Shown piece after piece: positions 18,808 through 57,496 of a stretch of 64,000 nucleotides of DNA (the stretch's first letter is position 1; the number at the start of each line of letters is the position of its first letter). The position numbers and the translations under genes are program-made. Under the pieces are notes generated by a model. That model saw nothing but the letters and a program-made list of their open reading frames with translations. It ran no database searches and was not told where the DNA came from. The DNA lies in NCBI RefSeq assembly GCF_024700885.2, contig NZ_CP117014.1. One strand, 5' to 3'. The stretch comes from Escherichia coli. GTDB lineage: Bacteria; Pseudomonadota; Gammaproteobacteria; Enterobacterales; Enterobacteriaceae.

Positions 18808-18841
18808 TGTGTTAGAAAATACGCGTTAATTATCTAACACA
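18808..18841. promoter_or_regulatory. Palindromic operator-like site TGTGTTAGAAAA-N-TTATCTAACACA in the rdgC promoter region
   Basis: GTTAGA-N16-TCTAAC read directly; same architecture at 32812-32829 and 35654-35681. Confidence 0.45.
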
Positions 18842-19509: not shown

Positions 19510-20486
19510 TTGTTCGGCACTCCTAATATCATTCGTGTTGTGTAGCCTACGCGGTCCTCAAAGTGCGCAACATTTTTTACTATCAGCTTACGGGGCATTG
19601 ATTCATCAATGCGGTTTTCCTGGTCATAGCGGTATACGATAATCTCTATTACCATCCCCGGTTTTATATCAGGATTGCCTGCGACTTCTATATCCATTTT
19701 GGGGACGAGAGACAGCTGCATATTGCGAAGAGTTTCCATATCAGAGTCGGATATATAACGCACTGGGAGTGAGCTATCGCCATATTCGACGTAGCCATCG
19801 GTCATGGAATACCCAACAAAACGATATTGATTCTTTGCTGTTGTCGCATGTTCCTGTTGGAGTAGGCGCATTTTGGACAAAGTGTATTCTGCTTTAGGGT
19901 TATTCCCCTCGTAGGTAAATGATGGCGTTTGCTTCATCAGATCAGCCAGGGTGTAAAAGTTCAATTCCCCCCGGCATACCCAACATAATGCACCTTTGTC
20001 TCGCGCTATCTCCGAAAGCATTTTTGACGGTTTGTCACCGGCATTCAGATGATATGTAACTGCGCGTTTTAGCACGCTGCTGGTAATTTTAAGCTTGCCG
20101 GAATATGCCTTGAATATAGCGTCTGGTGTTTTGTTGGTATGTAAATTTGTGCGCGGGGAGGGGATCTTAAACCTGCGCACGTCTTCACTGACAGCAATAA
20201 CGGTAACAACATCACCAGCCAGCATTGCAGACGTAACAAAGAAATCTGTTTTAAAAGTGCCTGCATTACCGTTTGGATCGCCCATTTCAGCCACCAGCGA
20301 TGCACCGTATTTGGCTTTCCAGTCATCAATTACGGTGCCGGTAGCGTCATGAATTTCCAGTTTTAGCAAAGGGGCTTTGAGGCTGGTTTTTTCTACATAT
20401 ACTGCGGTAAAAATCCAGTCTCGAGGCACTTTGTTATCGTTAATGAGCACTGACTGTAGAAAATATTGTTGTAACTCCTGGGCCAC
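19506..20486 (-). CDS. Putative baseplate protein (326 aa)
   Basis: Translationally coupled to spike gene; no motif recognised. Confidence 0.3.
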   Translation of the reverse strand: MAQELQQYFLQSVLINDNKVPRDWIFTAVYVEKTSLKAPLLKLEIHDATGTVIDDWKAKYGASLVAEMGDPNGNAGTFKTDFFVTSAMLAGDVVTVIAVSEDVRRFKIPSPRTNLHTNKTPDAIFKAYSGKLKITSSVLKRAVTYHLNAGDKPSKMLSEIARDKGALCWVCRGELNFYTLADLMKQTPSFTYEGNNPKAEYTLSKMRLLQQEHATTAKNQYRFVGYSMTDGYVEYGDSSLPVRYISDSDMETLRNMQLSLVPKMDIEVAGNPDIKPGMVIEIIVYRYDQENRIDESMPRKLIVKNVAHFEDRVGYTTRMILGVPNK

Positions 20487-20489
20487 TTA

Positions 20490-21257
20490 TCACCCCATAG
20501 ATATCGAGGTTTCGGTAATAATACGTTTTGCGTCCAACTCCCATGCTGTGATCACGTCTGTAATCACACTTATCGGCGCTTGTGTGGCATAAATACGCTC
20601 TTCTCCAATTGGTGCTGAAACATCCGTAAAGCCGACTTCTTTGGCATCCTGTATCGAGCAAATCAGCGGGACCGGGACACGAACAAGGTGAGTGGTTGCT
20701 TCAAATTGTGTACCTGTCATCAGGCGAAGCCGTGCGCCCAGCGAATTACACATCAGACTCATGGTCGCTTTATCAGTTGCCATTAACGTAACGTCATACG
20801 TCAGAATGGCCTGGGTGTATTCCAGTTCTGCTAAAGGCATTCCGGTATCCGGTTCGCAAAAACTGGCTACTTTTTTGCGGTCAATCTGCTGATCATCGTT
20901 GATATAATTGATATCCATAGTGCGTGAGATATTGACCAGGGGGAGAGCATCCCGGTTAATGTTCTGGTTTTCAGGTTTTCTCCCTTGCCCGGCATTTGCG
21001 CGACGAACTGCTTTAAGAAACTCGATCGCATTGTCGAAACGGGCCACATAGACACGCTCTGCTGGTGGACGATTCAGGAATGACGCAAAGCGTTTTTCTT
21101 CCGGCGCGGGGGCCACCAGTAAGATATCAGAAAAGATATTGCTGATTAGCGTAGCAAACGCGTTATCCACGTTTTCAAAGCCCGTGGTCTGGAATTTCCC
21201 TGTGCGTGAGGTTTGCCATTCACCTGTTCGCGCCAGGAGGGTTTTATTTGAAGTCAT
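20490..21257 (-). CDS. Putative baseplate/tail protein (255 aa)
   Basis: ORF in same operon. Confidence 0.3.
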   Translation of the reverse strand: MTSNKTLLARTGEWQTSRTGKFQTTGFENVDNAFATLISNIFSDILLVAPAPEEKRFASFLNRPPAERVYVARFDNAIEFLKAVRRANAGQGRKPENQNINRDALPLVNISRTMDINYINDDQQIDRKKVASFCEPDTGMPLAELEYTQAILTYDVTLMATDKATMSLMCNSLGARLRLMTGTQFEATTHLVRVPVPLICSIQDAKEVGFTDVSAPIGEERIYATQAPISVITDVITAWELDAKRIITETSISMG

Positions 21258-22087
21258 TCGATCACTCCGTTTTGAGTCGTATCAAAATTTCTGGCAGGTA
21301 TGCAGTAGTAAAGCGAACCAACATGTTGTGTGCCGTAGCTAAAAATACGGTGCACGTACCACCAGCGGCGGGCTACGCCGTTTACCATCTCTTCATTCCA
21401 TTCAAGAATTGATCCGACGGGGACGTTATTTGCTGCAATACGCAGAATCAGAACATCATCGGTTAAGCCATCCTGCTCACCGTCTGCGTCAATCGCATGG
21501 AAAGAGTCACGCCCGTCAGGGTTATCCAGCACATAAACGATTTCAGGTTCCTGGTAAGTCAGTTCGCGTTGGTTGTTATCCAGTTCAGTGAATGACTCTT
21601 CTCCTGTTTCGTCGCTGACTACCCCATATGTGCCAACATCTGGTCGATATAAGAGAGCCTGAAACGCGTCTGGGCTGGATTCAATAATCAGCATCCAGTC
21701 TGCGCGGATTTGGTCGTTAAAGGCTTTATGCCCGTTATAGCGTGCTTTTAGCTGTGGCGTCGGTTCTCTGCCAGCCAAGGAAGGTGGAAGTATGGCTATA
21801 TCTGATTCGCCAGCGTCCGGAGTAAGGCCACCGTTGCTATCAGCAAAATTATCATGGCTATCAGCTTCGGCGGTGGATTGCTCTTCCAGAATGCTGAATG
21901 AATCCGGTCCGGCATTGCCATGTTCCGGCGCGCTTCCTGCATCCGCTTCAACCGTCGCTGGCGTTTCTCTCTGCGTGCTGTCATGTTCTGACTCCTTACT
22001 TGCCAGGTTTGCATCGTCAGCAAACCATTCGTCAAAACGGCCCATAAGCATCCTCAAAGGTCGATTTATCAGGTATCGAGGGTGCAT
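21254..22087 (-). CDS. Putative baseplate/tail protein (277 aa)
   Basis: First ORF of operon, overlaps next gene by 4 nt. Confidence 0.3.
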   Translation of the reverse strand: MHPRYLINRPLRMLMGRFDEWFADDANLASKESEHDSTQRETPATVEADAGSAPEHGNAGPDSFSILEEQSTAEADSHDNFADSNGGLTPDAGESDIAILPPSLAGREPTPQLKARYNGHKAFNDQIRADWMLIIESSPDAFQALLYRPDVGTYGVVSDETGEESFTELDNNQRELTYQEPEIVYVLDNPDGRDSFHAIDADGEQDGLTDDVLILRIAANNVPVGSILEWNEEMVNGVARRWWYVHRIFSYGTQHVGSLYYCIPARNFDTTQNGVIE

Positions 22088-22916: not shown

Positions 22917-23648
22917 ATGAGCGCTGATTCATCAATAGAAAAGGAAAACCCCTCTACCAAAAATCTGTTAGAAGACGCTGTAAAAGATAAGTTGTTTAAT
23001 AAGGTTTTTGCCTATATTTTTATTTCATTTTTAATTTCTAACTGGCAAGAAATATTGATTTTGTTTAAATCAAAATATGATATATACACAACACTATCTA
23101 TAGTATGGATTGGTGACAAATATCAAGTCCCTTATTTGGGAACCTTCATTGTACCTCCGTTTTTAGCTCACTTTGTTATGCCGTTTATATATGGCACTGT
23201 TGCGTCCATAGTAATGCCTTATATTACTATGCGTATATCAAAACTAACTGGTAGAAATTATGCGCAAATAAGACATATTGACCGTGAATTTGACTCAAAA
23301 GAGCAAGCAAGATTAGATGAGTTACAGAAAGAAATAGAACAAAAAAAAGATGAGCGTTTAAGTCTAGAAAAGAAAATAGAAGATCAACGTAAATCATTGG
23401 CTAAAATTGAAGGTGAAAAGAAAGAAGTTGAGGACGCTAGAATATCCCTGTTTTATGGGATAAAGGCAATAGTTGATATATATGAAACCAAAGGCGAAAG
23501 CATTTCCACCCAAGAGGATTTTGCTGATTTACTAAAGGCAGTCGAACAAACTGATTTTTATAAAGATACAGGTTTATACGGTATTAATAAATTGGTAGAT
23601 GATGTAAAAAGAATATACGAACATCAATCTATCTTAAATGATAAGTAA
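22917..23648 (+). CDS. Membrane protein with 2-3 N-terminal transmembrane helices and a long charged coiled coil (243 aa)
   Basis: Strongly AT-rich gene; hydrophobic segments (FAYIFISFLISNWQEILILF; FIVPPFLAHFVMPFIYGTVASIVMPYITM) then E/K-rich heptads. Confidence 0.5.
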   Translation: MSADSSIEKENPSTKNLLEDAVKDKLFNKVFAYIFISFLISNWQEILILFKSKYDIYTTLSIVWIGDKYQVPYLGTFIVPPFLAHFVMPFIYGTVASIVMPYITMRISKLTGRNYAQIRHIDREFDSKEQARLDELQKEIEQKKDERLSLEKKIEDQRKSLAKIEGEKKEVEDARISLFYGIKAIVDIYETKGESISTQEDFADLLKAVEQTDFYKDTGLYGINKLVDDVKRIYEHQSILNDK

Positions 23649-25200: not shown

Positions 25201-25372
25201 AACAAAGCCTCTCAGTCATAACCTGGGGGAAACTGTATGCAGGGTGTGAAATGCGAGAAACAGACAGGTCACCATAAATCCCCTCACTGGTGACAAGTGA
25301 CTTTCATTAATCTTTATGCGGGGGCCAGCTTCATTTGCTGGCATTAGATTAAAAATTAAACGGAGTGAATGA

Positions 25373-26430: not shown

Positions 26431-27054
26431 ATGAAGGATGGTGTAGTGAAGTTAAGGGTTTTAGGGGCCGCGCTCGCGGCTATGTTGGGATGCGTATCTG
26501 CTAATACTGCCAATGCAACTGCGTTACCTGCACAATTCAGGGCAGGGCAGCAGGTTATGAATAATGCTGGTGGGGATCATTCACAAGCGGCCATTATGGA
26601 CTTTTGCAAGAGGGAGGGCATTCCATTACGGCCTGTTGGAACTCAGTTTATTGGTAAAACTGACTTTTGCGTTTTTGCATATACAGCATATCTGACGGAC
26701 AAAGCTATAACAAAAACAGGTTATTCAACCAAAGATACTCTTTCCAGATTAAGTCAGGGATGGCAGCAATTCGAAGTGTATCGCCAGCAAGGATTAGGTG
26801 AGTTATTGCAACCACTTTTTATGCTTGCGTTGGTGCCCGAGGGGCAGCAATTTTTGGTTAAAAAGGGAATGCTTCGCCAAAGTGATATTGCCGGGTTCGA
26901 TAGCATGATGGCTTATGAGCGCAAACTAACCGAGCAGCGAAATAAAAAACCATCTGCTTCATGTGTGCAAAGTAAAACAGCAGAATACAGTGCAGTAGCC
27001 GGGCCTTTAGCCAAACAAATGGCAGAGCAATGGTGTAAAAAATACGGGCAATAA
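26431..27054 (+). CDS. Exported protein with signal peptide (207 aa)
   Basis: N-terminal LGAALAAMLGCVSANTANA signal-like segment. Confidence 0.5.
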   Translation: MKDGVVKLRVLGAALAAMLGCVSANTANATALPAQFRAGQQVMNNAGGDHSQAAIMDFCKREGIPLRPVGTQFIGKTDFCVFAYTAYLTDKAITKTGYSTKDTLSRLSQGWQQFEVYRQQGLGELLQPLFMLALVPEGQQFLVKKGMLRQSDIAGFDSMMAYERKLTEQRNKKPSASCVQSKTAEYSAVAGPLAKQMAEQWCKKYGQ

Positions 27055-27074
27055 GTTACGCAGCGGAGGCAGAA

Positions 27075-27467
27075 TTGAAAAGATTGACAATTGCTTTACT
27101 GGCGTCTTTCCCTTTGATCGCGAGCGCCGGAAATTTACAAGTTAAGTGCGGTCGGTTTGATATAAAAATCTATCCAGATGCCATATTTCTGAATGGGAAT
27201 AAGGTTGATAACGTACACCGAAAAACTGAATCTGACGTAATGAGCTATGTGTTCCAGGAGTATGCGGAGATGGGGGGAACTTACACGCTGTACTCGCTGG
27301 ATGTTCCTTCTCGCGGTGATATGACATTATCCCATCAATGGCAGAACGCCGATGGCGAAGCTCTGCGCGAAGTTAAAACAGAAAAATGTGGCACTTTCCA
27401 TTCTTTTAAAGGGAAAGTGCCAAATGTTAAATCTGTGCTTGAAAAACAGCGCGCAGGTGATTTTTAA
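27075..27467 (+). CDS. Exported protein with signal peptide (130 aa)
   Basis: MKRLTIALLASFPLIASA signal peptide. Confidence 0.5.
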   Translation: MKRLTIALLASFPLIASAGNLQVKCGRFDIKIYPDAIFLNGNKVDNVHRKTESDVMSYVFQEYAEMGGTYTLYSLDVPSRGDMTLSHQWQNADGEALREVKTEKCGTFHSFKGKVPNVKSVLEKQRAGDF

Positions 27468-27489
27468 ACTGTGTTAGCACTTTGAACAT

Positions 27490-27535
27490 GGCGACAACAC
27501 ATCTTGGTGGCTGCGTTGTCGCTGTATGTTTTTAT
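27490..27535 (+). terminator. Rho-independent terminator
   Basis: GCGACAAC...GTTGTCGC stem followed by TGTATGTTTTTAT. Confidence 0.5.
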
Positions 27536-27555
27536 AATATAAAGCATTAAAGTTT

Positions 27556-28185
27556 TCATTTTTGTCGGATCTTTTCCAGCATATTTAATTCATTATCACT
27601 TTCTGCTGCTGAGACGGTTGGCCTCACATTTCCGAAATATTTCCTGTGAGACTCATGACTTATGTATTCACCGACAGTTTCATTCTTGAATATACGAATT
27701 TGACATATGCGAGATCCAACAATAAGTTCTACAGGGCTATTCCCATGATTAAATAACTCTAAAGATATACAGCCTCTGTACCCTGGTTGTATCATGGTAT
27801 TTAATGAAAGACCAAGCCTTGTATAGCTGCTTCTGGACAATACATCAGCGTAGCAATCTGGTGGCAAACAAACATATTCTAATGTTGTTGCCAGTACCAC
27901 TTGATTCGGGTAAACAATGAACCTATCCCCAAGATCTCTCCTTGTTTCCTGGAAAAATGTTCTGATTGGTTGATGAGTATCATTGTTTTTTGAGGGAATT
28001 AACTCTATTGACGGCTTCCTTGTCATAATAGACACTAAAAAATCGTAACCAAGTCTAAGGTCTATGGTGAAGTTTCCAATTTGGTTTTTATTTAGAAGAG
28101 GTTCAATGAACAACGACTCAGGTTCTTCTGATTCATAATATTGCAGCAATTCAGCTTTGCTTAGGAGATTCATTGTGCACTCCAT
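27556..28185 (-). CDS. dCTP deaminase (Dcd/dUTPase-fold) homolog
   Basis: 209 aa collinear with E. coli Dcd: IDLRLG, LATTLEYVCLP, RSSYTRLGL, GYRGCISLELFNHG; putative catalytic Ser/Arg/Glu conserved. Confidence 0.7.
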   Translation of the reverse strand: MECTMNLLSKAELLQYYESEEPESLFIEPLLNKNQIGNFTIDLRLGYDFLVSIMTRKPSIELIPSKNNDTHQPIRTFFQETRRDLGDRFIVYPNQVVLATTLEYVCLPPDCYADVLSRSSYTRLGLSLNTMIQPGYRGCISLELFNHGNSPVELIVGSRICQIRIFKNETVGEYISHESHRKYFGNVRPTVSAAESDNELNMLEKIRQK

Positions 28186-29243
28186 TTTTCAAGAATCATT
28201 ACGTTTCGAATCGATTTTTCAACCAAATCATTTATAGTTTTTTCTATGGCTTCTTTTGACAACCCAGACCATATACCCGTAGGTTTTTCCCATTCAGAGC
28301 ATAAGTACTGCCAGCTGCTGTTAATAAAAGCATGCATTTCATTGTGGTCGCGAATAACAAAAGGACGCACATTATCAAAAGCTGATTTCACATCAAGCAA
28401 AGGTGTCGGCAATGTCAAACAAGGAGAAATAATCTGCCCACCCTTATGTAAGGCTGATATCACAGCATTGAACATGCCAACAACTGGATTTTCCACTTTG
28501 TTCAAAAAGTCGCTTACAATTTTAACTCTATCTTCTGTGGATGGGTGAGTATAGCTTGCAGGATGAGAGCCAGCTAATTTGTATAAGAAATCTACCCCAC
28601 TTTTTCCAATAAATTGGGCACTAAATAGATCTGCAAAATATTCTCTGCAATGATTTATCCAAATAACATCAGGTAGATTACTCCATTCTGGTCCTGGAAG
28701 TGTGCCTTTGTCCTTGGAACGATAGTTAAGACAGGCAAGCTCAGAAATACCTTTGCTAATATCAACGAAATGTCCCAATTCGTGATATAAAGGTATAGAG
28801 CATAATGGTCGTCTTCTGTACATTTCAGGTAATGAAATCTGAATTAATTCGACCTCGAATTTGACATTTAAAACTTCATCAAATAAAGAATACAAATTCT
28901 TGTTTACAGACTTAAAATAAAACCCATGCATATCTGGAGATAGGGCTGTGGTTATAAGTGTTTTTTCACTTATCCATTTTTTACAGGCATCATTTAAGCA
29001 ATAAACAATCTCGTAGGGAATTTTCTTTGTAGTACTGCCAGTGAAAAAATTAACTGCATCGGTGATAAAAAAAGTACAATCCGCAATTATTTTATCAGCA
29101 ACATTCACATGGTTTTCATAGAGCTTATCTACCGCTTCTTGTAGAACAGCAAGATATTCATGCATGTCTTTAGAAAAATAGGGAGATTCTGATATCTCCC
29201 TTAGCTTATTTCGAACTAATGTAAGTTGTGTAAATGCAAGCAT
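28170..29243 (-). CDS. HExxH zinc metallopeptidase-like protein (ImmA/IrrE-like motif)
   Basis: 357 aa; HELGH at residues 154-158 with downstream EYFADLFSAQFI; 16-nt overlap with Dcd-like gene. Confidence 0.5.
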   Translation of the reverse strand: MLAFTQLTLVRNKLREISESPYFSKDMHEYLAVLQEAVDKLYENHVNVADKIIADCTFFITDAVNFFTGSTTKKIPYEIVYCLNDACKKWISEKTLITTALSPDMHGFYFKSVNKNLYSLFDEVLNVKFEVELIQISLPEMYRRRPLCSIPLYHELGHFVDISKGISELACLNYRSKDKGTLPGPEWSNLPDVIWINHCREYFADLFSAQFIGKSGVDFLYKLAGSHPASYTHPSTEDRVKIVSDFLNKVENPVVGMFNAVISALHKGGQIISPCLTLPTPLLDVKSAFDNVRPFVIRDHNEMHAFINSSWQYLCSEWEKPTGIWSGLSKEAIEKTINDLVEKSIRNVMILEKWSAQ

Positions 29244-29548
29244 TAAATGTACTCTAATACATTCCGGGCCATTACGGGTTCTAACATATCTTCGCTAGTT
29301 ACTTTGGTTAGCACCTGGGCGAGCGCCTTAGTGTGGCGTATCTCTACCGCGAGCGAGATGGACTCTCTGTGAGAAGGAATCTGTAATTGATCACCTTTAT
29401 CTACACTTAAGTTTGAGGCTTCTCTGATCACCTCATAAACCCGTAACTTTAACTGCTGTGACACTTCTTGTTGAGATGCTATAAGCTGAAGTACAGTCTT
29501 GATTAACTTCAAAGAATCAGAAGCTTGCTGAGGAACCGCATAGAGCAT
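29243..29548 (-). CDS. Small hypothetical protein (101 aa), first gene of the three-gene operon
   Basis: Stop overlaps start of the metallopeptidase gene; predicted all-alpha. Confidence 0.4.
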   Translation of the reverse strand: MLYAVPQQASDSLKLIKTVLQLIASQQEVSQQLKLRVYEVIREASNLSVDKGDQLQIPSHRESISLAVEIRHTKALAQVLTKVTSEDMLEPVMARNVLEYI

Positions 29549-29684
29549 AACCCCTCCTTTTCCCTTATCTATAACCGCTTTCTTTTTTCTGTGGATGTTA
29601 AAAGTAGAAGCGGTTTTTACCTTTTATAATATATATAGTGTCTAAAACTAATTTTGGCACTATATATGGCATGATATCTATGTT

Positions 29685-29730
29685 TTAAAGACACAAAAGC
29701 TCTGTTAAAACAGAGCTTTTGTGTCTTTAA
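29685..29730. promoter_or_regulatory. Perfect 20-bp inverted repeat with 6-nt spacer upstream of the three-gene operon
   Basis: TTAAAGACACAAAAGCTCTG-ttaaaa-CAGAGCTTTTGTGTCTTTAA; second IR ATATATAGTG-N17-CACTATATAT at 29631-29667. Confidence 0.5.
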
Positions 29731-29874
29731 CTTGATCATTTTCTCGCTGAAGTGTATGTCAGGCTTAGCTCATAATCAAGTTGCTTCCAAGCTAAAAATG
29801 AGCTATTTCACTGAAACACCAAGAGCGGGATGTTTCATTTATTTGCGTTGGGCCTGACGGTGTGCAGGTGAGTT

Positions 29875-30162
29875 TTAGCTCATCACACTATAACGACGGG
29901 GAACGGAATTCTCCATCAGGTCACGAATTACTCCCGCCTCATGTAGTTCCTCTGTTTCCCAGTATCTGTTTGTCACCAGATCGAGGCTGGCTATGACCTT
30001 GTGCCGGTCATTAGGCATAGCCAATTTTTCTGCTATAACCATCAGTGAAAACTCTTCATCCAGTAGGATTTGATACCAGACTTTTGACAGCTCCAACTCT
30101 CTAATGAGGGTGAAGCGCCGCTCAAGTGTGGCGGCAGAATAAGTGAAATCTATTTTTTTCAT
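29875..30162 (-). CDS. Hypothetical protein (95 aa)
   Basis: ORF downstream of antirepressor-like gene. Confidence 0.4.
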   Translation of the reverse strand: MKKIDFTYSAATLERRFTLIRELELSKVWYQILLDEEFSLMVIAEKLAMPNDRHKVIASLDLVTNRYWETEELHEAGVIRDLMENSVPRRYSVMS

Positions 30163-30221: not shown

Positions 30222-31148
30222 TTAACTAACAATCCAGTCCATAGCAATAACATCCTCTGGAGCTAAATCAATAGCATGGATTTTCCCGTCACGGATGGTG
30301 CGCCAGTGCTTTCGTGATCCACCTTCGGGCCACACCCATATACCTTCAGGCCAGGAAGAACGACGACACACTGTTGCGTATCCAGTCCTGATCTTCTCTC
30401 TGACGGTATGTAGTGACAGATTATCCTTTGGGCTTTCAGGCACAGGATGGTGGATTGCCTGAAACATCCCCATCTTTGGATGATACCAGCGTTTATTGCG
30501 TGGTTCTGCCTCCGACATCACCTGCTTAAAGGCTTTCCGGAAGGGGGCCAGGGCCACAATGGAGCGTCGCGCAAGCAAACCCTCTGGAGTTAAAAACTCA
30601 TGCGTATCGGTGGGAATCCGGAAAGCGTTAACCAGGTTGCGACATTTGGCTTCAGTCAGGCCACATTTCGCCGCCAGCTGGCGGTAGCCAATGTAACCTT
30701 CCGGCATATTGCCTTTCTTGATTTGCTCGAGTGTTTCAGCGACCATCGATACTTGTGCTGATACCTCGGCTACCTGGGCATTTACGGCGTTGATCCGGCG
30801 TTCATGCTCAAGATGCATTTGCGCCATTTCAGCCAGAATTTCGGCTTTTGATTTTAACTGTACCCGGGCATTCTCCAGTTCGCGCCAGCGGTCCACCAGC
30901 CGGGCGGTGAATTCGGGAGAGAGCTGCGCGACGACGACAATACTATCGCGCTTGCCTTGCTCGCCTTCGAAGACGTAATAGCTCGCCGGGCGGCCTGCGG
31001 TGGGCTTTTCCTCAATTTGAGGAAAAGATATTACGCCCCGTTCCGCCAGGTGTTCAATGGTGCGTTTAACGTTATCAGGGCGCTTACCTACCAGTTCCGC
31101 GATCTCAATGCTGGTCATTGTCGCTTTTTGAGAGATGGACAGATTCAT
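30222..31148 (-). CDS. Rha-family phage regulatory protein / antirepressor-like
   Basis: N-terminal ...TSIEIAELVGKRPDNVKRTIEHL... resembles the Rha domain; 308 aa. Confidence 0.55.
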   Translation of the reverse strand: MNLSISQKATMTSIEIAELVGKRPDNVKRTIEHLAERGVISFPQIEEKPTAGRPASYYVFEGEQGKRDSIVVVAQLSPEFTARLVDRWRELENARVQLKSKAEILAEMAQMHLEHERRINAVNAQVAEVSAQVSMVAETLEQIKKGNMPEGYIGYRQLAAKCGLTEAKCRNLVNAFRIPTDTHEFLTPEGLLARRSIVALAPFRKAFKQVMSEAEPRNKRWYHPKMGMFQAIHHPVPESPKDNLSLHTVREKIRTGYATVCRRSSWPEGIWVWPEGGSRKHWRTIRDGKIHAIDLAPEDVIAMDWIVS

Positions 31149-31363
31149 CAGTGCGCCTCCACGCAGTTCATCGGCAGATTCCAGTAATTGAGGATCTCCA
31201 TCGCATCAAGAGTGAAGCGAGCAGCAAAAATGCAGGGTTCTTCGGGAAGGTATGAGCGCGCCTCTGCTTCGGTAGCAGCCATGACGCAGATATACAGGTG
31301 TTTTTGGCAGGAATAGAAACGCCAGATAAATTCAGAATGAGTTGGGGTAGGGATAGTAGCCAT
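31148..31363 (-). CDS. Small protein (71 aa) overlapping antirepressor start; Icd-position gene
   Basis: ATG with AAGGAGG RBS; stop overlaps antirepressor start. Confidence 0.4.
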   Translation of the reverse strand: MATIPTPTHSEFIWRFYSCQKHLYICVMAATEAEARSYLPEEPCIFAARFTLDAMEILNYWNLPMNCVEAH

Positions 31364-31548
31364 ATTGGCAGCCTCCTTTGACTAAGTTAAGGAGCTACCG
31401 CGTGAGGTTCCAATCTCAATGGCGGTAGCACTGACTGGGTTGGAACTACCGGCGTCAAAGGGAACCGGCCTGCCTTTCGGCAGCCCAGCCAGCACTACCA
31501 TTGATCTCTGAGCTAAACGCTACGTATGGCTGTGCGATGGCATGACAC

Positions 31549-31569
31549 AAAAAAGACGCTTTCGGCGTC
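31549..31569 (-). terminator. Rho-independent terminator (minus strand)
   Basis: GACGC-tttcg-GCGTC with A6 on plus = U6 on minus. Confidence 0.5.
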
Positions 31570-31674
31570 TGTGTCGCCTTTGACATTATCCGGGGTTCCA
31601 ATCCCGGCACCCGTTTTTCTAAGGTGCCGTAGAAATATACCCCACGATAATGCTAGGGCGCAACAGTCAGTATT

Positions 31675-31842: not shown

Positions 31843-32173
31843 TTTGACACCCCCGACGCGAGTAAAGAATGCAGATTATCGCGTGAGTGGTGGACGACGA
31901 GTGATGGGAAAAGACTGTAGTTGTTCATAGTGTAGTGACTCCTTGCTTTCGGAGCCGCCATCGACTGTTCCACGGTCTGGTGGCGGCGCAATAAAGGCTG
32001 GAACACCGTGAGTCAACGGGGGCTTTTCAGCCACCTATATTGCACCGCCATAGGTATGACGGCGGCAATAATACGAAAAACTAAACAGTTTGTCTCAAAA
32101 AGTTGACCGGTGTGCCAATCGGTAGTGAATGTACATCGGAGAAATTTACAATTCAACTTAAAATGTTAGAAAA

Positions 32174-32752
32174 CTAATTTATCGATTCAATCGCCATCTG
32201 ATACAACGTCATTTCATCGGCATTGTGCCGTATGAAATCTGCTTTTCCGCCTATTTTTCCATCAGCATGAACAGGGACCAGCCAGGGATATTGTTCTCGG
32301 ACCTCGGCTGGCGCTGCGTACTGGTGGTGCCATTTACACAAAGGGAGGACATATTTATGCGCGTTCTCTGCCGTTCTCCCGAAGATATGGTGCAGGGATA
32401 CCACTGGGCTATGTTGCCCGTGAATATGGCAGGCAATGCAGGGGAGAGTACCTATAGCGGTCTGTATCCGGCGTTCATCGGCTGTGAGTGATCTGCCTTT
32501 CAGGCCGCGTGACGTGCGTGTTTTTTTGGGCGGAGCGGATACAGCTTTATCTTTTCTCCGCTGTTCATATTGCTTTGCTTTTTCATTTTTCTTTTGCCGA
32601 TATTCAGGCGATGCGGCCTTTTCTCTCGCTCGCTGCTGCTGGCGTTGAGCTTGTTGAAGGCGCTTTGCCCTTTGTTCCTCTCGCCAGGCCGGGTCAGCCA
32701 ATTTTTGCATGGCTTTTTGTCTCTGTTTCTCCCAATAACTCTGTTTCTGCAT
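32174..32752 (-). CDS. HNH-family endonuclease with long basic disordered N-terminus (P1 Ref-like)
   Basis: ~90 aa K/R/Q-rich N-terminus then CIACHIHG...LHHIF...PLCKWHHQ zinc/HNH motif; motif copies on both flanks. Confidence 0.5.
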   Translation of the reverse strand: MQKQSYWEKQRQKAMQKLADPAWREEQRAKRLQQAQRQQQRAREKAASPEYRQKKNEKAKQYEQRRKDKAVSAPPKKTRTSRGLKGRSLTADERRIQTAIGTLPCIACHIHGQHSPVVSLHHIFGRTAENAHKYVLPLCKWHHQYAAPAEVREQYPWLVPVHADGKIGGKADFIRHNADEMTLYQMAIESIN

Positions 32753-32811
32753 GATGGCAGTCTCTTACTTTTCAACGATTTTTCTATGATTGATCAAAAC
32801 GGTTAGATATT

Positions 32812-32829
32812 CAAAATTGATTTTCTAAC
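32812..32829. promoter_or_regulatory. Palindromic operator-like site GTTAGA-N16-TCTAAC upstream of the Ref-like gene
   Basis: GGTTAGATATTCAAAATTGATTTTCTAACACA read directly. Confidence 0.45.
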
Positions 32830-35653: not shown

Positions 35654-35681
35654 GTTAGAACATTGATTTTAGTTTTCTAAC
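35654..35681. promoter_or_regulatory. Palindromic operator-like site GTTAGA-N16-TCTAAC
   Basis: CGTTAGAACATTGATTTTAGTTTTCTAACATA read directly, ~45 bp upstream of gene at 35725. Confidence 0.45.
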
Positions 35682-36733: not shown

Positions 36734-37027
36734 ATGAGTCAAGGTAATGGTGACGGAGCTGCAAAGTGCAGAATCTCCACTTGTTTGATTAATGACAAAA
36801 AAATAGAACCGTGCGCGGCGTTGGCACAATCTCTGGAGAAGGATGCTGAATACACGACGCGGAAAGGTCTGCTGAAATACAAAATCTATAACCATGAATT
36901 AATTCATTCACAAGACCTGATCATGCTGCGGTCTGGTGAATTTTCTAAATCGCCTATTCGAGTTTCATTTTGCCCATTCTGTGGTGAAAGTCTGAAAACG
37001 TGGGAAGCGGAGGCAACCAGTGAATAA
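36734..37027 (+). CDS. Small protein with C-terminal zinc-ribbon-like CPFCG (97 aa)
   Basis: ORF with Cys pairs. Confidence 0.35.
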   Translation: MSQGNGDGAAKCRISTCLINDKKIEPCAALAQSLEKDAEYTTRKGLLKYKIYNHELIHSQDLIMLRSGEFSKSPIRVSFCPFCGESLKTWEAEATSE

Positions 37028-37664
37028 CCGCTTTTACATGATGTGCTTGCGTGAAACTGTGGGTAATAACGCCTCATTCCATTGCCATAACGGCAATGGT
37101 TACAGTTCTGATATCGATCGCGCTCATATTTACACGCTGGAAGAAGCCCAAAAAGCCTGGAATTGTGGGCGAGATATCGATCAGCCTGTTTGTGCCGATA
37201 GTGTGGATGCAATGGCTGTGTGGCACGTTGATTGCCAGTACATCCCTACAGAAAGCCTGATTGAGTCAGATTGCACTGAGTATGTGGCCTACAAAAAAGG
37301 TAGCTGGAACGGCAACGATGTTTACTGGCTTCAACACGGTGGATTGCCAACAGATGACTTCAGTAAAGCGACCATCTTTAGCTTCGCCAACAAAAACGAA
37401 CCAGGAATAGTTTGGTTGCCATTTTCCATTGCTGATGCAGCAAAGCGCCGGACGTTCAATATCAATAACTTTAACCGCAGAACAATGGTTCAGGGCGCAG
37501 GTTTGGTCATGCCTGACTGGTTGAAAGAGCAGAACAGAAGAAAGAAGTCGCGAAGCGGGAAGGTGCGTTGGAATTGTCCGCATTGCGGAAAAATAACCTG
37601 GCAGTACAGCCCATATGATTTTGAAGGCTGTCGTGATTACAACTGTGAAGGATGGCGAGAATGA
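37020..37664 (+). CDS. Cys-rich hypothetical protein (214 aa)
   Basis: Multiple Cys/His pairs including CPHCG. Confidence 0.35.
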   Translation: MNNRFYMMCLRETVGNNASFHCHNGNGYSSDIDRAHIYTLEEAQKAWNCGRDIDQPVCADSVDAMAVWHVDCQYIPTESLIESDCTEYVAYKKGSWNGNDVYWLQHGGLPTDDFSKATIFSFANKNEPGIVWLPFSIADAAKRRTFNINNFNRRTMVQGAGLVMPDWLKEQNRRKKSRSGKVRWNCPHCGKITWQYSPYDFEGCRDYNCEGWRE

Positions 37665-38374
37665 CAATTGACTATCAGGTACTGCGTGAGGCGGCAGAAA
37701 AGGCAACACCAGACGAATGGGTCGCATTTATTTCGACGGATACTGGTACTTATGCGGTGCACACGCCCGGTGATGAACGATGTGAAGACGTTATCAAATG
37801 GACCGGCTTTGATGGACAGAAAAATGCAGAGAACAACGCTCGTTATGTTGCCGCGTTCAACCCAAAGGTTGCACTGGAGCTTCTTGGTGAAATTAAGCGC
37901 CTGGAGGACACAAATATTGATGCTATGTGTCGAATTGCAGAGCTTGAGACTAATCTCGCGGCGCTGGCGGCGGAGAATGAACTGGCTCGTAAGGCAGTTC
38001 AGGCATTCTGCGATGTTGTTGGCGACAACACCGAGGTTATCGCTGAGGAGGTTGGGCGAGATGGCGTTCTGGTTATTTTGGAGGCCATGAAGGCAACAGG
38101 AAATATGCCAGCCACCGATGCTTTTCTGGCTGAAATTCGTGCGGAAGCACGCAACGAGGGAGTTAACTATACCGCCAGCCGTCTTGCTGCTGCGTTCAAT
38201 CACGGATTTATCAATAAGTCTTTGCGTGAAGTTTTCGACGTTACACGCATGATTTTGTCAGCGAAAGAAGAGTTGGCTAATGAAGCGCATCCGATTGATG
38301 GCCTGTCTGGTGAATATGCGGAGAAATCCCTTGAAGAATGGGCGGAACAGATTCGCAAAGGAGCTGACAAGTGA
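37652..38374 (+). CDS. Ea22/Ead-like early-region protein
   Basis: N-terminal YQVLREAAEKAT and AAFNPKVALELL cassettes shared with 39309 paralog; coiled coil. Confidence 0.45.
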   Translation: MARMTIDYQVLREAAEKATPDEWVAFISTDTGTYAVHTPGDERCEDVIKWTGFDGQKNAENNARYVAAFNPKVALELLGEIKRLEDTNIDAMCRIAELETNLAALAAENELARKAVQAFCDVVGDNTEVIAEEVGRDGVLVILEAMKATGNMPATDAFLAEIRAEARNEGVNYTASRLAAAFNHGFINKSLREVFDVTRMILSAKEELANEAHPIDGLSGEYAEKSLEEWAEQIRKGADK

Positions 38375-38781
38375 AGAAGATGATTTTTATCGCGGCATTG
38401 TTGGTGAATATCCAACAAGTGCATGCTTCAGCAGCTATTGTAGCCTCTACCGCCGCGACTACGGCTGCTGTAGCTGCTGCGAACTCTGCGAATATCGCAA
38501 ACCAACAGGCACAGCGTGCTGCTAATGCATCAGCCAGCGTTCACTCAATCACCATTAAGAGCAGTAAGCAAAATCTGGGATTCATAACGTGCGGCACGCG
38601 TTCTAATGAAGCTGTAGGTTCACTTGGATGTACGGTATATGGGGGTAGTGAGAATAGAGAAATTCCATGGAAAACGTGGCCCGGATACGTTCTTGGCTCG
38701 AAGCTCCCGGCCAGTTATGAAGTAAACGCCGTATCGTTTGATCACTATAACGGCGTGGCAACGGTCTATTTTGCATATTGA
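38371..38781 (+). CDS. Secreted Ala-rich small protein (136 aa)
   Basis: Signal-like N-terminus then low-complexity Ala/Thr run. Confidence 0.35.
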   Translation: MKKMIFIAALLVNIQQVHASAAIVASTAATTAAVAAANSANIANQQAQRAANASASVHSITIKSSKQNLGFITCGTRSNEAVGSLGCTVYGGSENREIPWKTWPGYVLGSKLPASYEVNAVSFDHYNGVATVYFAY

Positions 38782-38788
38782 GGCCCGC

Positions 38789-39322
38789 ATGAAATTCTCC
38801 AAATTTTCTGAGTTGGTGAATCGTATTTTGTTGAATCGTATTTTGTCCAACAACCACAGCCATCGTCGCGATATGGATGTAACGATCGTTGTTCATTCGC
38901 CTGGCAGCATTGGTTCAACACCCTCAGTTGAGGTTCAGTCAATTCACGCTGGTTTTGATTGGGATTCCGGGAAAGTGCTGATTTTCCCAGCACAGCCACT
39001 GACCACTCTAACACCAGAACAGATTACTGATATTACTGATAGTGTGCGCAAAGGTCAGTCCTGGCACGCATATCAGGAATACAAGAAGCATAAAGAGCAG
39101 TTGGAAAAATTATCGATTGAACTTGATACCGCAAAACAGCGCATTGCAGAGCTGGAGAGCAATCGCGCGGCGCTGGCGGCGGAGCATGGTATTCAGATTG
39201 CAATAAATGAACTGCTTGCTCTGGCCCCGCGTCTGGATAAACGAGCGGTGGATGCACTCTCTGTGGCTGTGGAGCACCTGTGTAAACTGATTAAGAAGGA
39301 GGCAGTCAGTGAGCAAAATTAA
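38789..39322 (+). CDS. Ea22-like coiled-coil protein (start refined to ATG 38789)
   Basis: IAELESNRAALAAEHG coiled-coil cassette shared with paralogs. Confidence 0.4.
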   Translation: MKFSKFSELVNRILLNRILSNNHSHRRDMDVTIVVHSPGSIGSTPSVEVQSIHAGFDWDSGKVLIFPAQPLTTLTPEQITDITDSVRKGQSWHAYQEYKKHKEQLEKLSIELDTAKQRIAELESNRAALAAEHGIQIAINELLALAPRLDKRAVDALSVAVEHLCKLIKKEAVSEQN

Positions 39323-40064
39323 TTACCAGGCACTGCGTGAGGCGGCAGAGAAAGCAACGTGGGGAGACTGGGACTCATATAAACCACACCGTGGCGCACG
39401 TGGTTATAAGGTCCGACTAAGTGGTCAGGCCATTGCGCAACACGTTCTGAAAAACAACGCTGAATTTATTGCTGCCTTTAATCCAAAGGTTGCTTTGGCA
39501 TTACTGGATGAACTGGAAAGAAACCAGCAATACATCAAACGCCGCGACCAGAAGAACGAGGATATTGCTCTTACGGTTGGGAAGCTGAGAGTTGAGCTTG
39601 AGGAAGTAAAACAACACGCTGAAGAATTATCCGAAACCAAGGCTGTTCGTAACCAATGGCGGCCAGATATTTGCCCAATAACCGGACGTGCATTTTTCAT
39701 GTGGATTGAGCATCCAACATTGGGAAATGTGCCGACATATGGTGGCCCATTAGATAGTTACACCATTCCAACAAAGGACGGTGACGGTGAGTTTTCATGT
39801 GAGCGTTACGATCATGATTTTGGCGGTTGGGTAGAAAGCGAATGTCTTGGGTTATATCTGATTGATGATAGAGAACAATGCAGGGTCTACGAACTGGAGG
39901 AGCGCGTTAAGGAACTGGATGCTCGGGAAATATCGCTCCCGGAACGTAGCAGCATGCTTCATCGAACAGATTTTCACGATGATTACCAAACGGTAATGGC
40001 ATACAAAGTTTCTGAAGTCATCGATGCAATCCGCGCTACTGGCATTCGCATCAAAGGAGAGTGA
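39309..40064 (+). CDS. Ea22/Ead-like early-region protein
   Basis: N-terminal YQALREAAEKAT / AAFNPKVALALL cassettes. Confidence 0.45.
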   Translation: MSKINYQALREAAEKATWGDWDSYKPHRGARGYKVRLSGQAIAQHVLKNNAEFIAAFNPKVALALLDELERNQQYIKRRDQKNEDIALTVGKLRVELEEVKQHAEELSETKAVRNQWRPDICPITGRAFFMWIEHPTLGNVPTYGGPLDSYTIPTKDGDGEFSCERYDHDFGGWVESECLGLYLIDDREQCRVYELEERVKELDAREISLPERSSMLHRTDFHDDYQTVMAYKVSEVIDAIRATGIRIKGE

Positions 40065-40065
40065 G

Positions 40066-40476
40066 ATGAACGCTATAACCAAAGAACGTATCAAATTATT
40101 CATTAAAAATCCGCTTGATAACGGACTTACTCGTGGCGAACAAATGGAACTGGCACGAATTGCTCTGGCATCGCTGGAAGCAGAGGCAGTTATGTTCTGT
40201 ATATCAGGACAAAATGTAGATTCAGAAGAACATGTATCAACCAGCAAAGCGGTTGTTGATGCCTGGGTTGAAGAATGGAATCAGGTTGACGGAAGTCCTG
40301 GCGAACCACTGTACAAAACTATGCCACTCTACTATCACGCTGCCTTGCCAGCGCCGGTAGTGCCGGATGAAATGTATTGGCAGGATGCGCCAGTTGAAGG
40401 CAGCAGCAAAGCGGCTGCATACGCTACAGGCTGGAACGCCTGCCGCGCCGCTATGCTTCATGGGAAAGGAGAGTGA
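40066..40476 (+). CDS. Small early-region protein sharing N-terminal cassette with 40752 gene
   Basis: ITKERIKLFIKNPLDNGLTRGEQMELARIALASLEA near-duplicated at start of next large gene. Confidence 0.4.
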   Translation: MNAITKERIKLFIKNPLDNGLTRGEQMELARIALASLEAEAVMFCISGQNVDSEEHVSTSKAVVDAWVEEWNQVDGSPGEPLYKTMPLYYHAALPAPVVPDEMYWQDAPVEGSSKAAAYATGWNACRAAMLHGKGE

Positions 40477-40478
40477 TA

Positions 40479-40741
40479 TGGCAACTTTAACAAAAAAAGA
40501 ACGGGCATGGTTGAACGAATTACAGGACGTTCTTGATCGCTGTCCATCACCGAAAAAAATTGGTTTTTACACCATTGGCGATAAAAGCATTTACCTGTAT
40601 GACCTGCGCCGCATGGATGAAATCATGGAGACTCTTGATAATCGTTCGTCGATGGATTGGTGTGTTGCTGTTCATGATATGAATGCAGGGTTTGATGAAA
40701 AGATTTTGTTCCCCTCATCAGTTGAAAGCACTGCGGGTTAA
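40479..40741 (+). CDS. Small early-region protein (87 aa; start refined to ATG 40479)
   Basis: AGGAGAG RBS; track ORF extends upstream in overlap. Confidence 0.35.
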
Positions 40742-40751
40742 GGAGTAACAC

Positions 40752-42272
40752 ATGACCACTATTACCAAAGAACGTATTGAATTGTTCATTAAAAATCCGC
40801 TTGAAAACGGGCTTACCCGTGGTGAACAAATGGAACTGGCACGGATTGCGCTGGCATCGCTGGAAGCAGATCCAGTTAAACGAGTTAACTCAGATCAGAT
40901 GCGCCGAGTCTGCTTAGAAGCTAATCGCCATTTAGATAAATATGACGCGATGGCGAAAGAGGTAAATAAGTTGCTTGGACGCATCGCCCCGCCAGCGCCG
41001 GTAGTGCCGGAAGAAGCAACTCCGGAAAACGTAGAAATGCTCTCTGGCTATGTTTCCACGTACAAATTAACCGATAGCGAGCGCGATATTGCTGCCGAAA
41101 TATGGAACGCCTGCCGCACCGCCATGCTTCAGTCCGGAAACTTTCGGGAAAGCAAGAATTCGTCAACCAATAATTTTCGGGAAATCGCGGAAACGTCAAC
41201 CAACTATCCGGTAATTCCTAGTGAGGTGTTGTCAGCAATCCTGAAGTTTGCCAGAGTTCGTGCCGATTTCGATGATTTTGACGGTGACAGGCGAGGTATC
41301 GGTGATTGTCTGGATGAGGCCGAGCAAGAGCTTATCGTTACCATTAACAAATATGCCAGTCAGTTGGCAGCAGAACCGATAGCGACTAATGACGTTCGAG
41401 AGCAAACAGCCGTTCCGCCAATACAGGCTGATGTCGCGCAAGCAATTGAAAATCTCAAGCAGAAGTTAGTGGAATGCAATCGCTATAACTACTGCGCAGA
41501 TGCAGTTAAAGGCGTAGAGGATGCCAGCCGCGTCTTGGCACTCCAAAATCAAAATATGTCAGCACCGGTAACGCCGGAGGCCATTGAAAACGCAATTGAA
41601 TATATCCGCAGTATCGCTTTTCACATCGATGAAGACGATTACCACGGCAAGCATATTGCGTATTTCATGCGACAAGCATTGGCCTGGCTGGAAGGGCATT
41701 CATGCAGCGACGACAGGCTGGGTAAGGCCGACAATCAACCCGCATCTGGTAACCAGTCTGCCGAATCCAATCGCGGTAATGAGTGGACCGGCAATCCTGA
41801 TATTGATAACGCCATCATCATGCTCGACCGCATAGATACGGCGGAAAGTTGCGATGATGACCGTATTGAGGCCGTTAAGGCTGTGTTGCGTAGACTGGCA
41901 GGCAACTATCCGGATATTCCGGATAGTTCGGTGCCAGCGCCAGGAAAGGGCGTCACCGGTGAACGTATCCGCATTAAGCCGCATGTTTATCGCGAACTGG
42001 TTAACCGTCTCCACGATACAGCGATCAAGTGTGCTGGCACCCAGCAATTACGAGAAAGAATTAGCCGTGTTTTGGGCGACGTTATTACACCAGATCATCA
42101 TAAACAAGCCGAGAAAAGTGGCCTGGAAAGGTGTCGCCTTGAGGCGGCATTAAACATTAAGCCGGGGCATACGCTTGGCATTATTGATGCACTATTGGTT
42201 CATAAGATGGCCAGGGCTTTATTGCCGCTGGTGGCTGAAAAGCATGAGGTGGACCATGCCAACGAAAGCTGA
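40752..42272 (+). CDS. Large early-region protein (506 aa) with Ea22-type N-terminal cassette
   Basis: N-terminus duplicates 40066 gene; internal APPAPVVPEE linker also shared. Confidence 0.4.
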   Translation: MTTITKERIELFIKNPLENGLTRGEQMELARIALASLEADPVKRVNSDQMRRVCLEANRHLDKYDAMAKEVNKLLGRIAPPAPVVPEEATPENVEMLSGYVSTYKLTDSERDIAAEIWNACRTAMLQSGNFRESKNSSTNNFREIAETSTNYPVIPSEVLSAILKFARVRADFDDFDGDRRGIGDCLDEAEQELIVTINKYASQLAAEPIATNDVREQTAVPPIQADVAQAIENLKQKLVECNRYNYCADAVKGVEDASRVLALQNQNMSAPVTPEAIENAIEYIRSIAFHIDEDDYHGKHIAYFMRQALAWLEGHSCSDDRLGKADNQPASGNQSAESNRGNEWTGNPDIDNAIIMLDRIDTAESCDDDRIEAVKAVLRRLAGNYPDIPDSSVPAPGKGVTGERIRIKPHVYRELVNRLHDTAIKCAGTQQLRERISRVLGDVITPDHHKQAEKSGLERCRLEAALNIKPGHTLGIIDALLVHKMARALLPLVAEKHEVDHANES

Positions 42273-48927: not shown

Positions 48928-49000
48928 AGCACCCTCCTAAATAGGCGAGGGTACTTTACAGCAAAGGCGTTAATCTAAAAAGATGTGTTAGAAATTTAAT

Positions 49001-50180: not shown

Positions 50181-50214
50181 CTAACTTTAAATAATGCCAA
50201 TTATTTAAAGTTAT
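50181..50214. other. lox-like recombination site: 13-bp inverted arms with 8-bp asymmetric spacer
   Basis: CTAACTTTAAATA-ATGCCAAT-TATTTAAAGTTAT; outer AACTT/AAGTTAT shared with loxP. Confidence 0.6.
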
Positions 50215-50395
50215 AAAATGCCGATTTTTTTTAATCCATCATAGATTGATGATGACCAGTAACACGTTGCCTTCATGGTCTTTAATTTGCGAAGTGTGGT
50301 TTCTACGGTTGGTTTTCTAAAATTGATGACAAAAAATCACAGTTCGATCCTTTACTCACTCTGTTATTCGACATAAATTTGTCATAGTAATTTTA

Positions 50396-50411
50396 TGTTA
50401 GAAAACTAAAT
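50396..50411 (+). promoter_or_regulatory. Dispersed motif copy TGTTAGAAAACTAAAT in promoter of gene at 50424
   Basis: Read directly, ~13 bp upstream of ATG. Confidence 0.45.
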
Positions 50412-50423
50412 CGAGTAGGAATA

Positions 50424-54361: not shown

Positions 54362-54750
54362 AAAGCAACACCACGCTTTTTAACGGCGGCATTCCACAGC
54401 TTATTCGCCATGTCCACCAGCTCTCGTTGCTCTTTTCGCGCCTGTTCGACTGATTTCCTGCTACAGTTTTTAACCAGTAAACTGCCATATTCAGGGGTTC
54501 GCCCACGCACCTTGAACTGATATCCGTTCAGGCCATGCAACCAGTATTTTCGTGGGTAAACACGATCATCAAGCTCACAGATTGCCCTGCTTGAACGAAC
54601 AAAATGACGAATGATGTTAGTTACACTTACTCGTGAAACATGGAGATGAGGGTATTTTTCTTTGGCGAGAGTGGTAATTTCAGTGACTGTCAGATAGCAG
54701 TCAGCCCTGATCATGATATCCGCAATTTCTGCGCTGCTGATTTGTTCCAT
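54358..54750 (-). CDS. Small protein immediately upstream of pacA (Lpa-position gene; putative late activator)
   Basis: 130 aa, 4-nt overlap with pacA start; assignment by synteny with P1 lpa only. Confidence 0.4.
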   Translation of the reverse strand: MEQISSAEIADIMIRADCYLTVTEITTLAKEKYPHLHVSRVSVTNIIRHFVRSSRAICELDDRVYPRKYWLHGLNGYQFKVRGRTPEYGSLLVKNCSRKSVEQARKEQRELVDMANKLWNAAVKKRGVAL

Positions 54751-54858
54751 TAATCCCCCGGGCAGGAAATGACCGAGGGGATGATAATGAGAATGTTAAA
54801 ACTGTATAGACTGGTAAAAAGATGAATGTATTAGAAAATTAATACTAAATATCTAATG

Positions 54859-57400: not shown

Positions 57401-57404
57401 AATT

Positions 57405-57491: not shown

Positions 57492-57496
57492 TAAAT

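Follow-up and report, generated by a model that had tools for sequence, protein, structure and literature searches.

A 64,000-nucleotide stretch of Escherichia coli contig NZ_CP117014.1 (the window) is, by sequence comparison, a D6-like plasmid prophage, that is, a phage-plasmid. Scattered through it is an asymmetric motif, (T)GTTAGAAAAyTAAAT, present in 16 copies at 12 loci, four of which are 28-bp inverted pairs. Sequence homology and analogy with phage P1 make it very probable that the D6-type C1 repressor, the product of 50424–51461, uses this motif as its operator. We base this assignment on the motif statistics, on where the copies lie and how well they are conserved, on repressor homology and on the match with the annotated operators of P1.

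The repeated TGTTAGAAAA-type motif was confirmed as real. An earlier note, made from the letters of the sequence alone, had described a dispersed asymmetric motif and proposed a scan against shuffled controls. That scan gave a frequency far above composition-matched random sequence, and the copies are almost wholly intergenic. Eight matches to the consensus of that note, TGTTAGAAAAYTAAAT, were found with up to two mismatches, versus 0.15 expected, and none of 100 shuffles reached 8. The inverted arrangement GTTAGA-N(10–22)-TCTAAC occurs three times against an expectation of 0.02, and the spacer is exactly N16 in all three cases, giving 28 bp in total. Scanning with a position weight matrix (PWM) produced a two-peaked score distribution, with seventeen 17-mers at 19–33 and all else at 11 or below, a bimodality that is partly circular because the PWM was derived from the scored sites themselves. 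The informative positions begin ~2 bp ahead of GTTAGA, continue for ~11 bp beyond it and do not form a palindrome. Single copies are found on either strand and face either way relative to genes. A generous coding mask, which covers 88% of the window, leaves 10 of 13 independent loci outside coding sequence (binomial P ~1e-7). The possibility that an A/T-rich word simply recurs by chance has a little in its favour, since the shorter core GTTAGAAA exceeds a rough composition estimate only ~5-fold (12 observed versus ~2.4 estimated by hand) and one copy lies in an open reading frame (ORF). However, no shuffle reached the observed counts and the positions are conserved across relatives, so that chance is already refuted and its probability can be regarded as negligible.

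All three palindromes reported in the earlier note were recovered, although a fourth pair with the variant arms ATTAGA-N16-TCTAAT (54830–54857) had been missed. Similarly, 11 of its 13 sites hold as listed; the interval 54828–54843 is only one arm of this fourth pair, and 56203–56224 is not a member of the set. The latter was ruled out because its spacing is wrong (N10 rather than N16) and its PWM score is below 6. It is a 22-bp palindrome, TGTTAGTAAAAGGTACCTAACA, located directly downstream of tRNA-Met and resembling the operator arms, and may be a decayed site or a hairpin. An additional match at 23026–23042 (minus strand) was likewise set aside. Despite a PWM score of 21.6, it is doubtful because it lies in an ORF and is absent from phage D6; it also has no TG prefix, and a chance match is probable.

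The region around the site at 32812–32829, where the motif was noted, is 95% identical to Escherichia phage D6, a plasmid prophage related to P1, and its identity to non-mobilizable E. coli plasmids of ~90 kb reaches 98.7%. BLAST comparison of D6 with the whole window reveals synteny, with a few segments replaced, and the whole D6 genome contains about 20 copies of the motif. The D6 record names a prophage repressor (window 50424–51461), lpa, pacAB, the cre-like dre together with rox, ref, hrdC, dmt and icd/ant, among others, and neither of the two D6 GenBank records carries an operator annotation.

The gene at 50424–51461 (plus strand) encodes a protein of 345 amino acids that is 99.7% identical to the D6 product described as 'prophage repressor, similar to P1 C1'. 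The earlier note had named this product as a candidate binder of the motif, and homology agrees with the choice. It matches P1 C1 in BLASTP with 21% identity over 268 amino acids (E=1e-8), as well as the NCBIfam model phage_rep_C1 (NF041318, E=6e-6), with which it is collinear (7–240 versus 8–245). The latter match scores 25.9 bits against a cutoff of 500, so the protein is not an equivalog. The precomputed annotation of the product and its homologues is Pfam PF27008, Phage_P7_repressor_C1. Our own Pfam-A profile search gave no match, PHROGs returned only an unannotated family, and no PDB sequence was matched. These sequence comparisons make P1 C1 a distant, collinear homologue of the product, and by analogy the product would be the protein that binds the motif.

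The C1 regulon of P1 offers a direct standard for the locations. P1 is reported to have 22 dispersed asymmetric C1 operators with the consensus ATTGCTCTAATAAATTT, controlling repL, lpa and others (PMC8546580). In the P1 record, operators are marked as monovalent (17 bp) or bivalent (28 bp) and are placed at ref, mat, ssb, c4, repL, rlf, dmt, ban, 26, ppp, pmgR, pmgT, lpa and c1. P1 Oc1 corresponds to the site at 50397–50413 and Olpa to the pair at 54830–54857. The pair at 32802–32829 is the counterpart of Oref and also of Oppp, which serves the divergent ppp-containing operon, and 18811–18838 corresponds to Odmt of the uhr-hrdC-dmt unit. Oc4/Op51 of c4-icd-ant is matched by 32165–32181 and, in D6, also by 21259–21275, whereas OrepL is matched by a weak D6 site at 22468. 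The counterparts of Obanab, upstream of the tRNA/tci/ban operon, are 58789–58805 and 58633–58649, and those of the neighbourhood of OpmgRa/b and Oppp/O26 are 60038–60054 and 61081–61097. The two systems thus share a homologous repressor, dispersed asymmetric sites of ~17 bp usable in either orientation, the same targets (c1, lpa, ref, hrdC-dmt, c4-icd-ant, repL, the tRNA/ban operon and pmgR/S), several sites flanking the c1 promoter and a common TTAGA/TCTAA core. They also share bivalent sites of 28 bp, in which two inverted 17-mers overlap by 6 bp; the layout is 11-6-11 in all four D6-type pairs, and P1 Obanab and Oc1ab are likewise 28 bp long.

The sequences read by the two systems differ: RTTAGAAAAyTAAAT in the D6-type element versus ATTGCTCTAATAAATTT in P1, motifs that are not cross-recognisable. 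The P1 consensus has no match in the window at up to three mismatches, and the D6-type motif occurs in P1 at chance level; therefore, the systems appear parallel but orthogonal. The remark in the earlier note that the scatter resembles that of P1 C1 operators with another sequence is thus borne out on both points. Further differences from P1 include a helical C-terminal extension of ~100 amino acids in the D6-type C1 and a higher share of bivalent sites (4 of 12 loci). Sequence comparison places the D6-type system as a heterospecific relative of the P1 C1 regulon and not as a member of the P1/P7 immunity group. Likeness to lambda CI/Cro is more general and consists of a prophage master repressor, autoregulation and operators overlapping promoters. 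Lambda operators are dyad-symmetric, bound by helix-turn-helix (HTH) dimers and clustered at two promoters, whereas the D6-type element has asymmetric sites dispersed across its genome, and the protein proposed to read them is predicted not to be of the HTH type.

The motif was then followed in relatives with increasingly divergent C1 proteins: plasmids of E. marmotae (L007) and Shigella dysenteriae (L008), a remnant plasmid (L009), the Leclercia adecarboxylata plasmid pE1_003 (L010) and two metagenomic contigs (L011, L012). For L007–L010, analysis was by pattern search and alignment rather than PWM. The same pattern occurs 16 times in the E. marmotae plasmid (C1 80% identical; 1.5 expected), 13 times in the S. 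dysenteriae plasmid (70%; 1.7 expected), and seven and five times in the metagenomic contigs (51% and 44%; 0.6 and 0.4 expected). The matches lie at orthologous intergenic places: they precede c1, lpa, pmgS, the pdcB-like gene and the divergent promoter at ref, and they follow cre and pmgS. When the intergenic regions at c1, ref and lpa are aligned, the sites stand out as near-invariant islands between diverged flanks. The motif is retained in relatives with C1 identities of 44–89%, and the TGTTAGAAAA core thus persists down to the lower of these values. At 35% identity, the region upstream of c1 contains RTTAGATA variants. In the Leclercia plasmid, whose C1 is 30% identical, the D6 motif is absent; this plasmid has its own dispersed motif, ATAGATTCTAAGGnTTT, in five copies (4062, 9473, 19207, 24320 and 27777) versus 0.18 expected, and its c1 homologue has one such copy 37 bp upstream. 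ATAGATTCTAAGGnTTT is a candidate third operator specificity in the family. Finally, P1, with a C1 of 21% identity, has the operator motif ATTGCTCTAAT. TTAGA/TCTAA is common to the motifs of all these lineages (D6-type, 35%, Leclercia and P1), and at the sequence level the series fits a diversifying repressor/operator family.

These data also bear on the idea that the motif is the site of another regulator, either a protein encoded by the element, such as a small DNA-binding or HTH protein of an early operon or one of the Ant/Rha type, or a host nucleoid protein. The element does encode other DNA-binding proteins, all its proteins diverge together with the motif, and the evidence linking C1 to the motif is comparative rather than physical. 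Yet the sites match, location by location, the experimentally founded C1 operators of P1, including the c1 autoregulatory site, lpa, ref and c4-icd-ant, and the layout of 17-bp single and 28-bp double sites is that of P1. Moreover, accessory early genes vary among the relatives, whereas the motif and c1 are retained in all, and even the remnant plasmid keeps c1 with its upstream site. We therefore consider another regulator improbable.

With C1 as the probable reader of the motif, a regulatory scheme can be outlined by analogy with P1. One C1 molecule would bind each asymmetric site of ~17 bp, made up of the core RTTAGAAAA and an A/T-rich tail, and two molecules would occupy each of the four 28-bp inverted pairs. 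Bound C1 would occlude or block the sigma-70 promoter of its own gene, giving autoregulation, and those of the late-gene activator lpa, of ref and of hrdC-dmt. It would do the same at the antirepressor unit C4 RNA-icd-ant, at pmgS and pmgM, at the tRNA operon and at two early operons, the pdcB-like one and that of orf88. One protein could thereby keep the plasmid prophage lysogenic with the lytic genes off. Binding by C1, its monomer stoichiometry, repression and the assignment of individual promoters are what we infer from the P1 analogy. Because the specificities appear orthogonal, D6-type elements and P1 should be heteroimmune.

Promoter-like sites, identified with a lenient PWM, are consistent with this scheme. 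Operators overlap promoter-like hexamers at seven of 12 loci, whereas 1.5 would be expected if intergenic positions were drawn at random (P ~5e-4), and depending on the locus, single copies overlap the −35 element, the −10 element or the early transcribed region. The same overlap could be taken to mean that the motif is a shared promoter or UP-like element for RNA polymerase that involves no repressor; the motif is indeed A/T-rich and contains the words TTAGAA and TAAAAT. However, single copies are in sense orientation at c1, pmgS and pmgM and antisense at orf52, C4-ant and orf117. The earlier note had argued that independence of orientation favours an operator, and the occurrence of single sites both ways relative to downstream genes indeed argues against a directional promoter element. 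The position relative to the promoter varies, inverted pairs of perfect geometry are found at four loci, and the motif differs between lineages that all reside in enterobacteria with the same RNA polymerase. A promoter element of this kind is thus very unlikely.

Some copies adjoin 'morphogenetic' genes (pmgS, pmgM and the capsid-gene gap), as would be seen if the motif marked Lpa-dependent late promoters. P1 late promoters consist of a directional AAGTnACTT −22 box and a −10 element, and this pattern is not enriched in the window (3 versus 2.8 expected). The motif is unrelated in sequence to the P1 −22 box, is independent of orientation, precedes the early or immunity genes lpa, c1, ref and ant and is absent from most structural operons. 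This explanation is therefore scarcely credible. The sole exact match to the P1 late-promoter pattern, AAGTGACTT-N4-TAATCT at 25295–25313 (plus strand), is situated in a gap beside a gene-26-like gene, and P1 has LP26/LPpmgL at the matching place. Otherwise, D6-type late promoters seem to use a different Lpa box.

Several points weigh against the assignment of the motif to C1 as a promoter-occluding repressor. A strict consensus scan found no promoter with at least 9 of 12 matching positions at the ref or c1 loci, the lenient scan has a background of ~3 per kb of intergenic DNA at 9 bits or more, and the A/T-rich motif itself supplies hexamer-like words to it. Since the promoter matches are weak and the motif contributes such words, promoter occlusion is here inferred only. 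Co-variation of motif and repressor does not single out C1 because all proteins of the element diverge together. The D6 operator is not unambiguously alignable with that of P1; when they are aligned on TTAGA, the D6 arms point outward and those of P1 inward. Two accessory modulators of the P1 switch, the antirepressor Coi, encoded beside c1, and the corepressor Lxc/Bof, were also not recovered. No coi was found, and only ~210 bp devoid of ORFs separate rox from c1, so that the coi/imcAB region that P1 has between c1 and the recombination site is missing. Nor was an Lxc homologue detected by BLASTP, the ORF beside ulx (61273–61533) having no such similarity to Lxc, although no profile search was made. 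The phage, the repressor gene and the P1 paradigm were already known, and the operator list is as expected and possibly already described. We found no published description of D6 C1 operators in the literature searched; the D6 genome paper, which may list them, was outside its coverage.

The most surprising by-product of the analysis is a possible link to the replication-terminator protein Tus, which comes from structure prediction. The AlphaFold2 model of the D6-type C1 is confident (predicted local distance difference test 94.5, predicted template modelling score 0.80), and its only significant Foldseek matches in the PDB are Tus–Ter complexes, with E-values of 1e-7 to 3e-6 and 0.25 for the next match. 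Against AFDB50, the C1 family, including the P1 'Repressor protein C1', is followed by dozens of Tus orthologues. The D6-type C1 is thus predicted to have the Tus fold, although template modelling scores are modest (0.35–0.47). The family alignment comprised 57 C1 family members, collected by representative and homologue searches, plus P1 C1. At the sequence level, the 57-homologue profile retrieved no PDB sequence at E≤10 in hmmsearch, and hhalign against Tus gave a probability of 9%; the Tus family therefore differs from the D6-type C1 in showing no detectable sequence homology to it. Tus binds as a monomer that clamps a long asymmetric site, and it also represses its own promoter. A Tus-like fold of C1 would explain asymmetric operators that are usable in either orientation and bound by a monomer. 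The role proposed for the D6-type protein differs from that of Tus/Ter in being the transcriptional repression of a phage regulon.

Two further resemblances to Tus/Ter did not hold. The likeness of the operator to Ter (TGTT..CTAAA) is striking by eye but does not exceed composition-matched shuffles; compared with TerB, P was 0.27 for D6, 0.83 for P1 and 0.95 for Leclercia. A Ter-like two-block orientation of single operators around a point opposite repA has exceptions in D6, and P1 displays no such pattern. In the literature covered, which was incomplete, we found no paper linking C1 with Tus. A tentative proposal, nearly as likely as not, is that the PF27008 C1 repressors of P1/D6-type phage-plasmids are Tus-fold monomeric readers of long TTAGA-core asymmetric sites, diversified into mutually orthogonal repressor/operator pairs (P1, D6-type, Leclercia-type and others). 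If so, the long-unexplained asymmetric operators of P1 would be linked to the otherwise isolated Tus fold, and the Tus-like fold, should it hold and be unreported, would account for asymmetric, monomer-bound operators. Two questions would follow: did Tus arise by domestication of a mobile-element repressor of this kind, and do C1–operator complexes act as polar barriers to replication or transcription?

The proposed regulon is of wider interest since E. coli, Salmonella and Shigella commonly harbour D6-like phage-plasmids, and the repressor family is carried by 148 PLSDB plasmids. The operator set would define the immunity group of these elements and allow the genes kept silent during carriage to be predicted. 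With a specificity orthogonal to that of P1, this second C1/operator pair would be useful for comparative work on the P1-type lysis–lysogeny switch and as a possible genetic tool beside Dre/rox of the same phage. The co-varying series of repressors and operators, from 100% to 21% identity with a constant TTAGA core, would represent a natural dataset on DNA reading by the C1 family.

The individual candidate operators are best described by neighbourhood, starting with the immunity region. The single site at 50397–50413 (plus strand; PWM 25.7) is located 11 bp upstream of the c1 start codon and is the putative autoregulation site. It is nearly invariant in five relatives although the upstream DNA diverges, and it holds the same place in the genomes with 51% and 44% identical C1. 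The putative c1 promoter, TTTACT (50351–56)-17-TAAATT (50374–79), is a promoter-like pair conserved in the c1 alignment. Upstream of it lies a weak, degenerate inverted candidate, TTTAGAAAAC (50305–50321, minus strand), with a PWM score below 6 in the window. Part of this candidate, TTTTCTAA (50313–50320), is invariant in the c1 alignment, and L011 and L012 (51% and 44% C1) have a full TGTTAGAAAA copy at the same place. Because the degenerate copy is conserved and the full copy is present in these two relatives, two inverted sites flanking the c1 promoter would appear to be a family feature. The 32-bp rox site of the Dre recombinase, TAACTTTAAATAATGCCAATTATTTAAAGTTA, is found at 50182–50213, between the dre/cre-like gene (49001–50029, minus strand) and c1. 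At the other end of this gene, a single site at 48987–49003 (plus strand; PWM 27.3) separates its 3' end from the start of the minus-strand orf117-dut operon; its position is kept in L007, L008, L011 and L012. The bivalent candidate at 54830–54857, the ATTAGA-N16-TCTAAT variant (PWM 31.7 and 21.9), is upstream of lpa (54358–54750, minus strand).

A second group of sites surrounds ref. The originally noted site at 32812–32829 is the right arm of the bivalent 28-bp candidate at 32802–32829, which lies between the Ref-like gene (32174–32752, minus strand) and the divergent orf88...ppp-type operon (plus strand). This pair forms a conserved island in the ref alignment, and two divergent promoter-like sites have their −35-like hexamers within it. 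A single candidate at 32165–32181 (plus strand; PWM 25.2), where ref has its 3' end, is upstream of the minus-strand isrK-like RNA, C4 RNA, icd and ant. Both RNAs were identified by Rfam on the minus strand, the C4 antisense RNA at 31418–31505 (77 bits) and the isrK-like RNA at 31549–31627 (63 bits), and they are followed by icd (31148–31363) and an ant/Rha-like gene (30222–31148), both also on the minus strand. The C4-icd-ant unit of the window is a second antirepressor module of the immI type. Another, with c4-a1b1 targets, is found in the D6 genome at 19986–21275, and its layout is the same: the site at 21259–21275 is followed by c4-a1b1, C4, icd and ant. The bivalent candidate at 35654–35681 precedes the pdcB-like (DUF968/HNH) operon, which starts at 35725 (plus strand). 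Its left arm is weak, it is overlapped by a promoter-like TTGATT-17-TATTTT, and it is retained in L007 and L008. The remaining bivalent candidate, at 18811–18838, was found both as GTTAGA-N16-TCTAAC and by PWM upstream of hrdC (RdgC family) and dmt (minus strand); compared with D6, its arms are conserved and its centre differs.

The remaining candidates are single sites on the minus strand. The one at 58789–58805 (PWM 31.4) is located just after the stop codon of pmgS and upstream of a strong promoter-like site (58774–58746, minus strand; score 12.8) and the minus-strand tRNA cluster. A second, weaker candidate at 58633–58649 (PWM 19.1) is in the same leader and is also present in D6, L007, L008 and L011. 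The site at 60038–60054 (PWM 29.4), 21 bp upstream of the pmgS-like gene (58809–60017, minus strand), is one that every relative conserves. The site at 61081–61097 (PWM 24.4), where the pmgM-like (VRR-NUC) gene has its 5' edge, lies downstream of a promoter-like TTTACA-16-TATTAT and is shared with D6, L007 and L008. Finally, orf52 (8349, plus strand) is preceded at a distance of 17 bp by the site at 8316–8332 (PWM 32.6), which lies between this gene and the capsid gene. This site is overlapped by a promoter-like TTAACA-17-TTTAAT and is also present in D6.

The tRNA cluster comprises five minus-strand genes at 56279–57573 (Met-CAT, Ser-TGA, Thr-TGT, Tyr-GTA and Arg-TCT), detected by ARAGORN and Rfam; at this cluster, the D6 RefSeq record has only three tRNAs (Ser, Thr and Asn), on the plus strand. 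The D6 segment 6164–6909, with the tellurite/colicin resistance-like genes tciA and tciB, is absent from the window, which has ~170 bp instead (56360–56531). Other window regions, such as 26482–29939 and 37023–41424, have no match in D6 and look like variable cargo. The D6 counterpart of 14041–15702 (plus strand) is annotated as a full-length, GlnS-like glutamine-tRNA ligase, an unusual cargo for a phage-plasmid.
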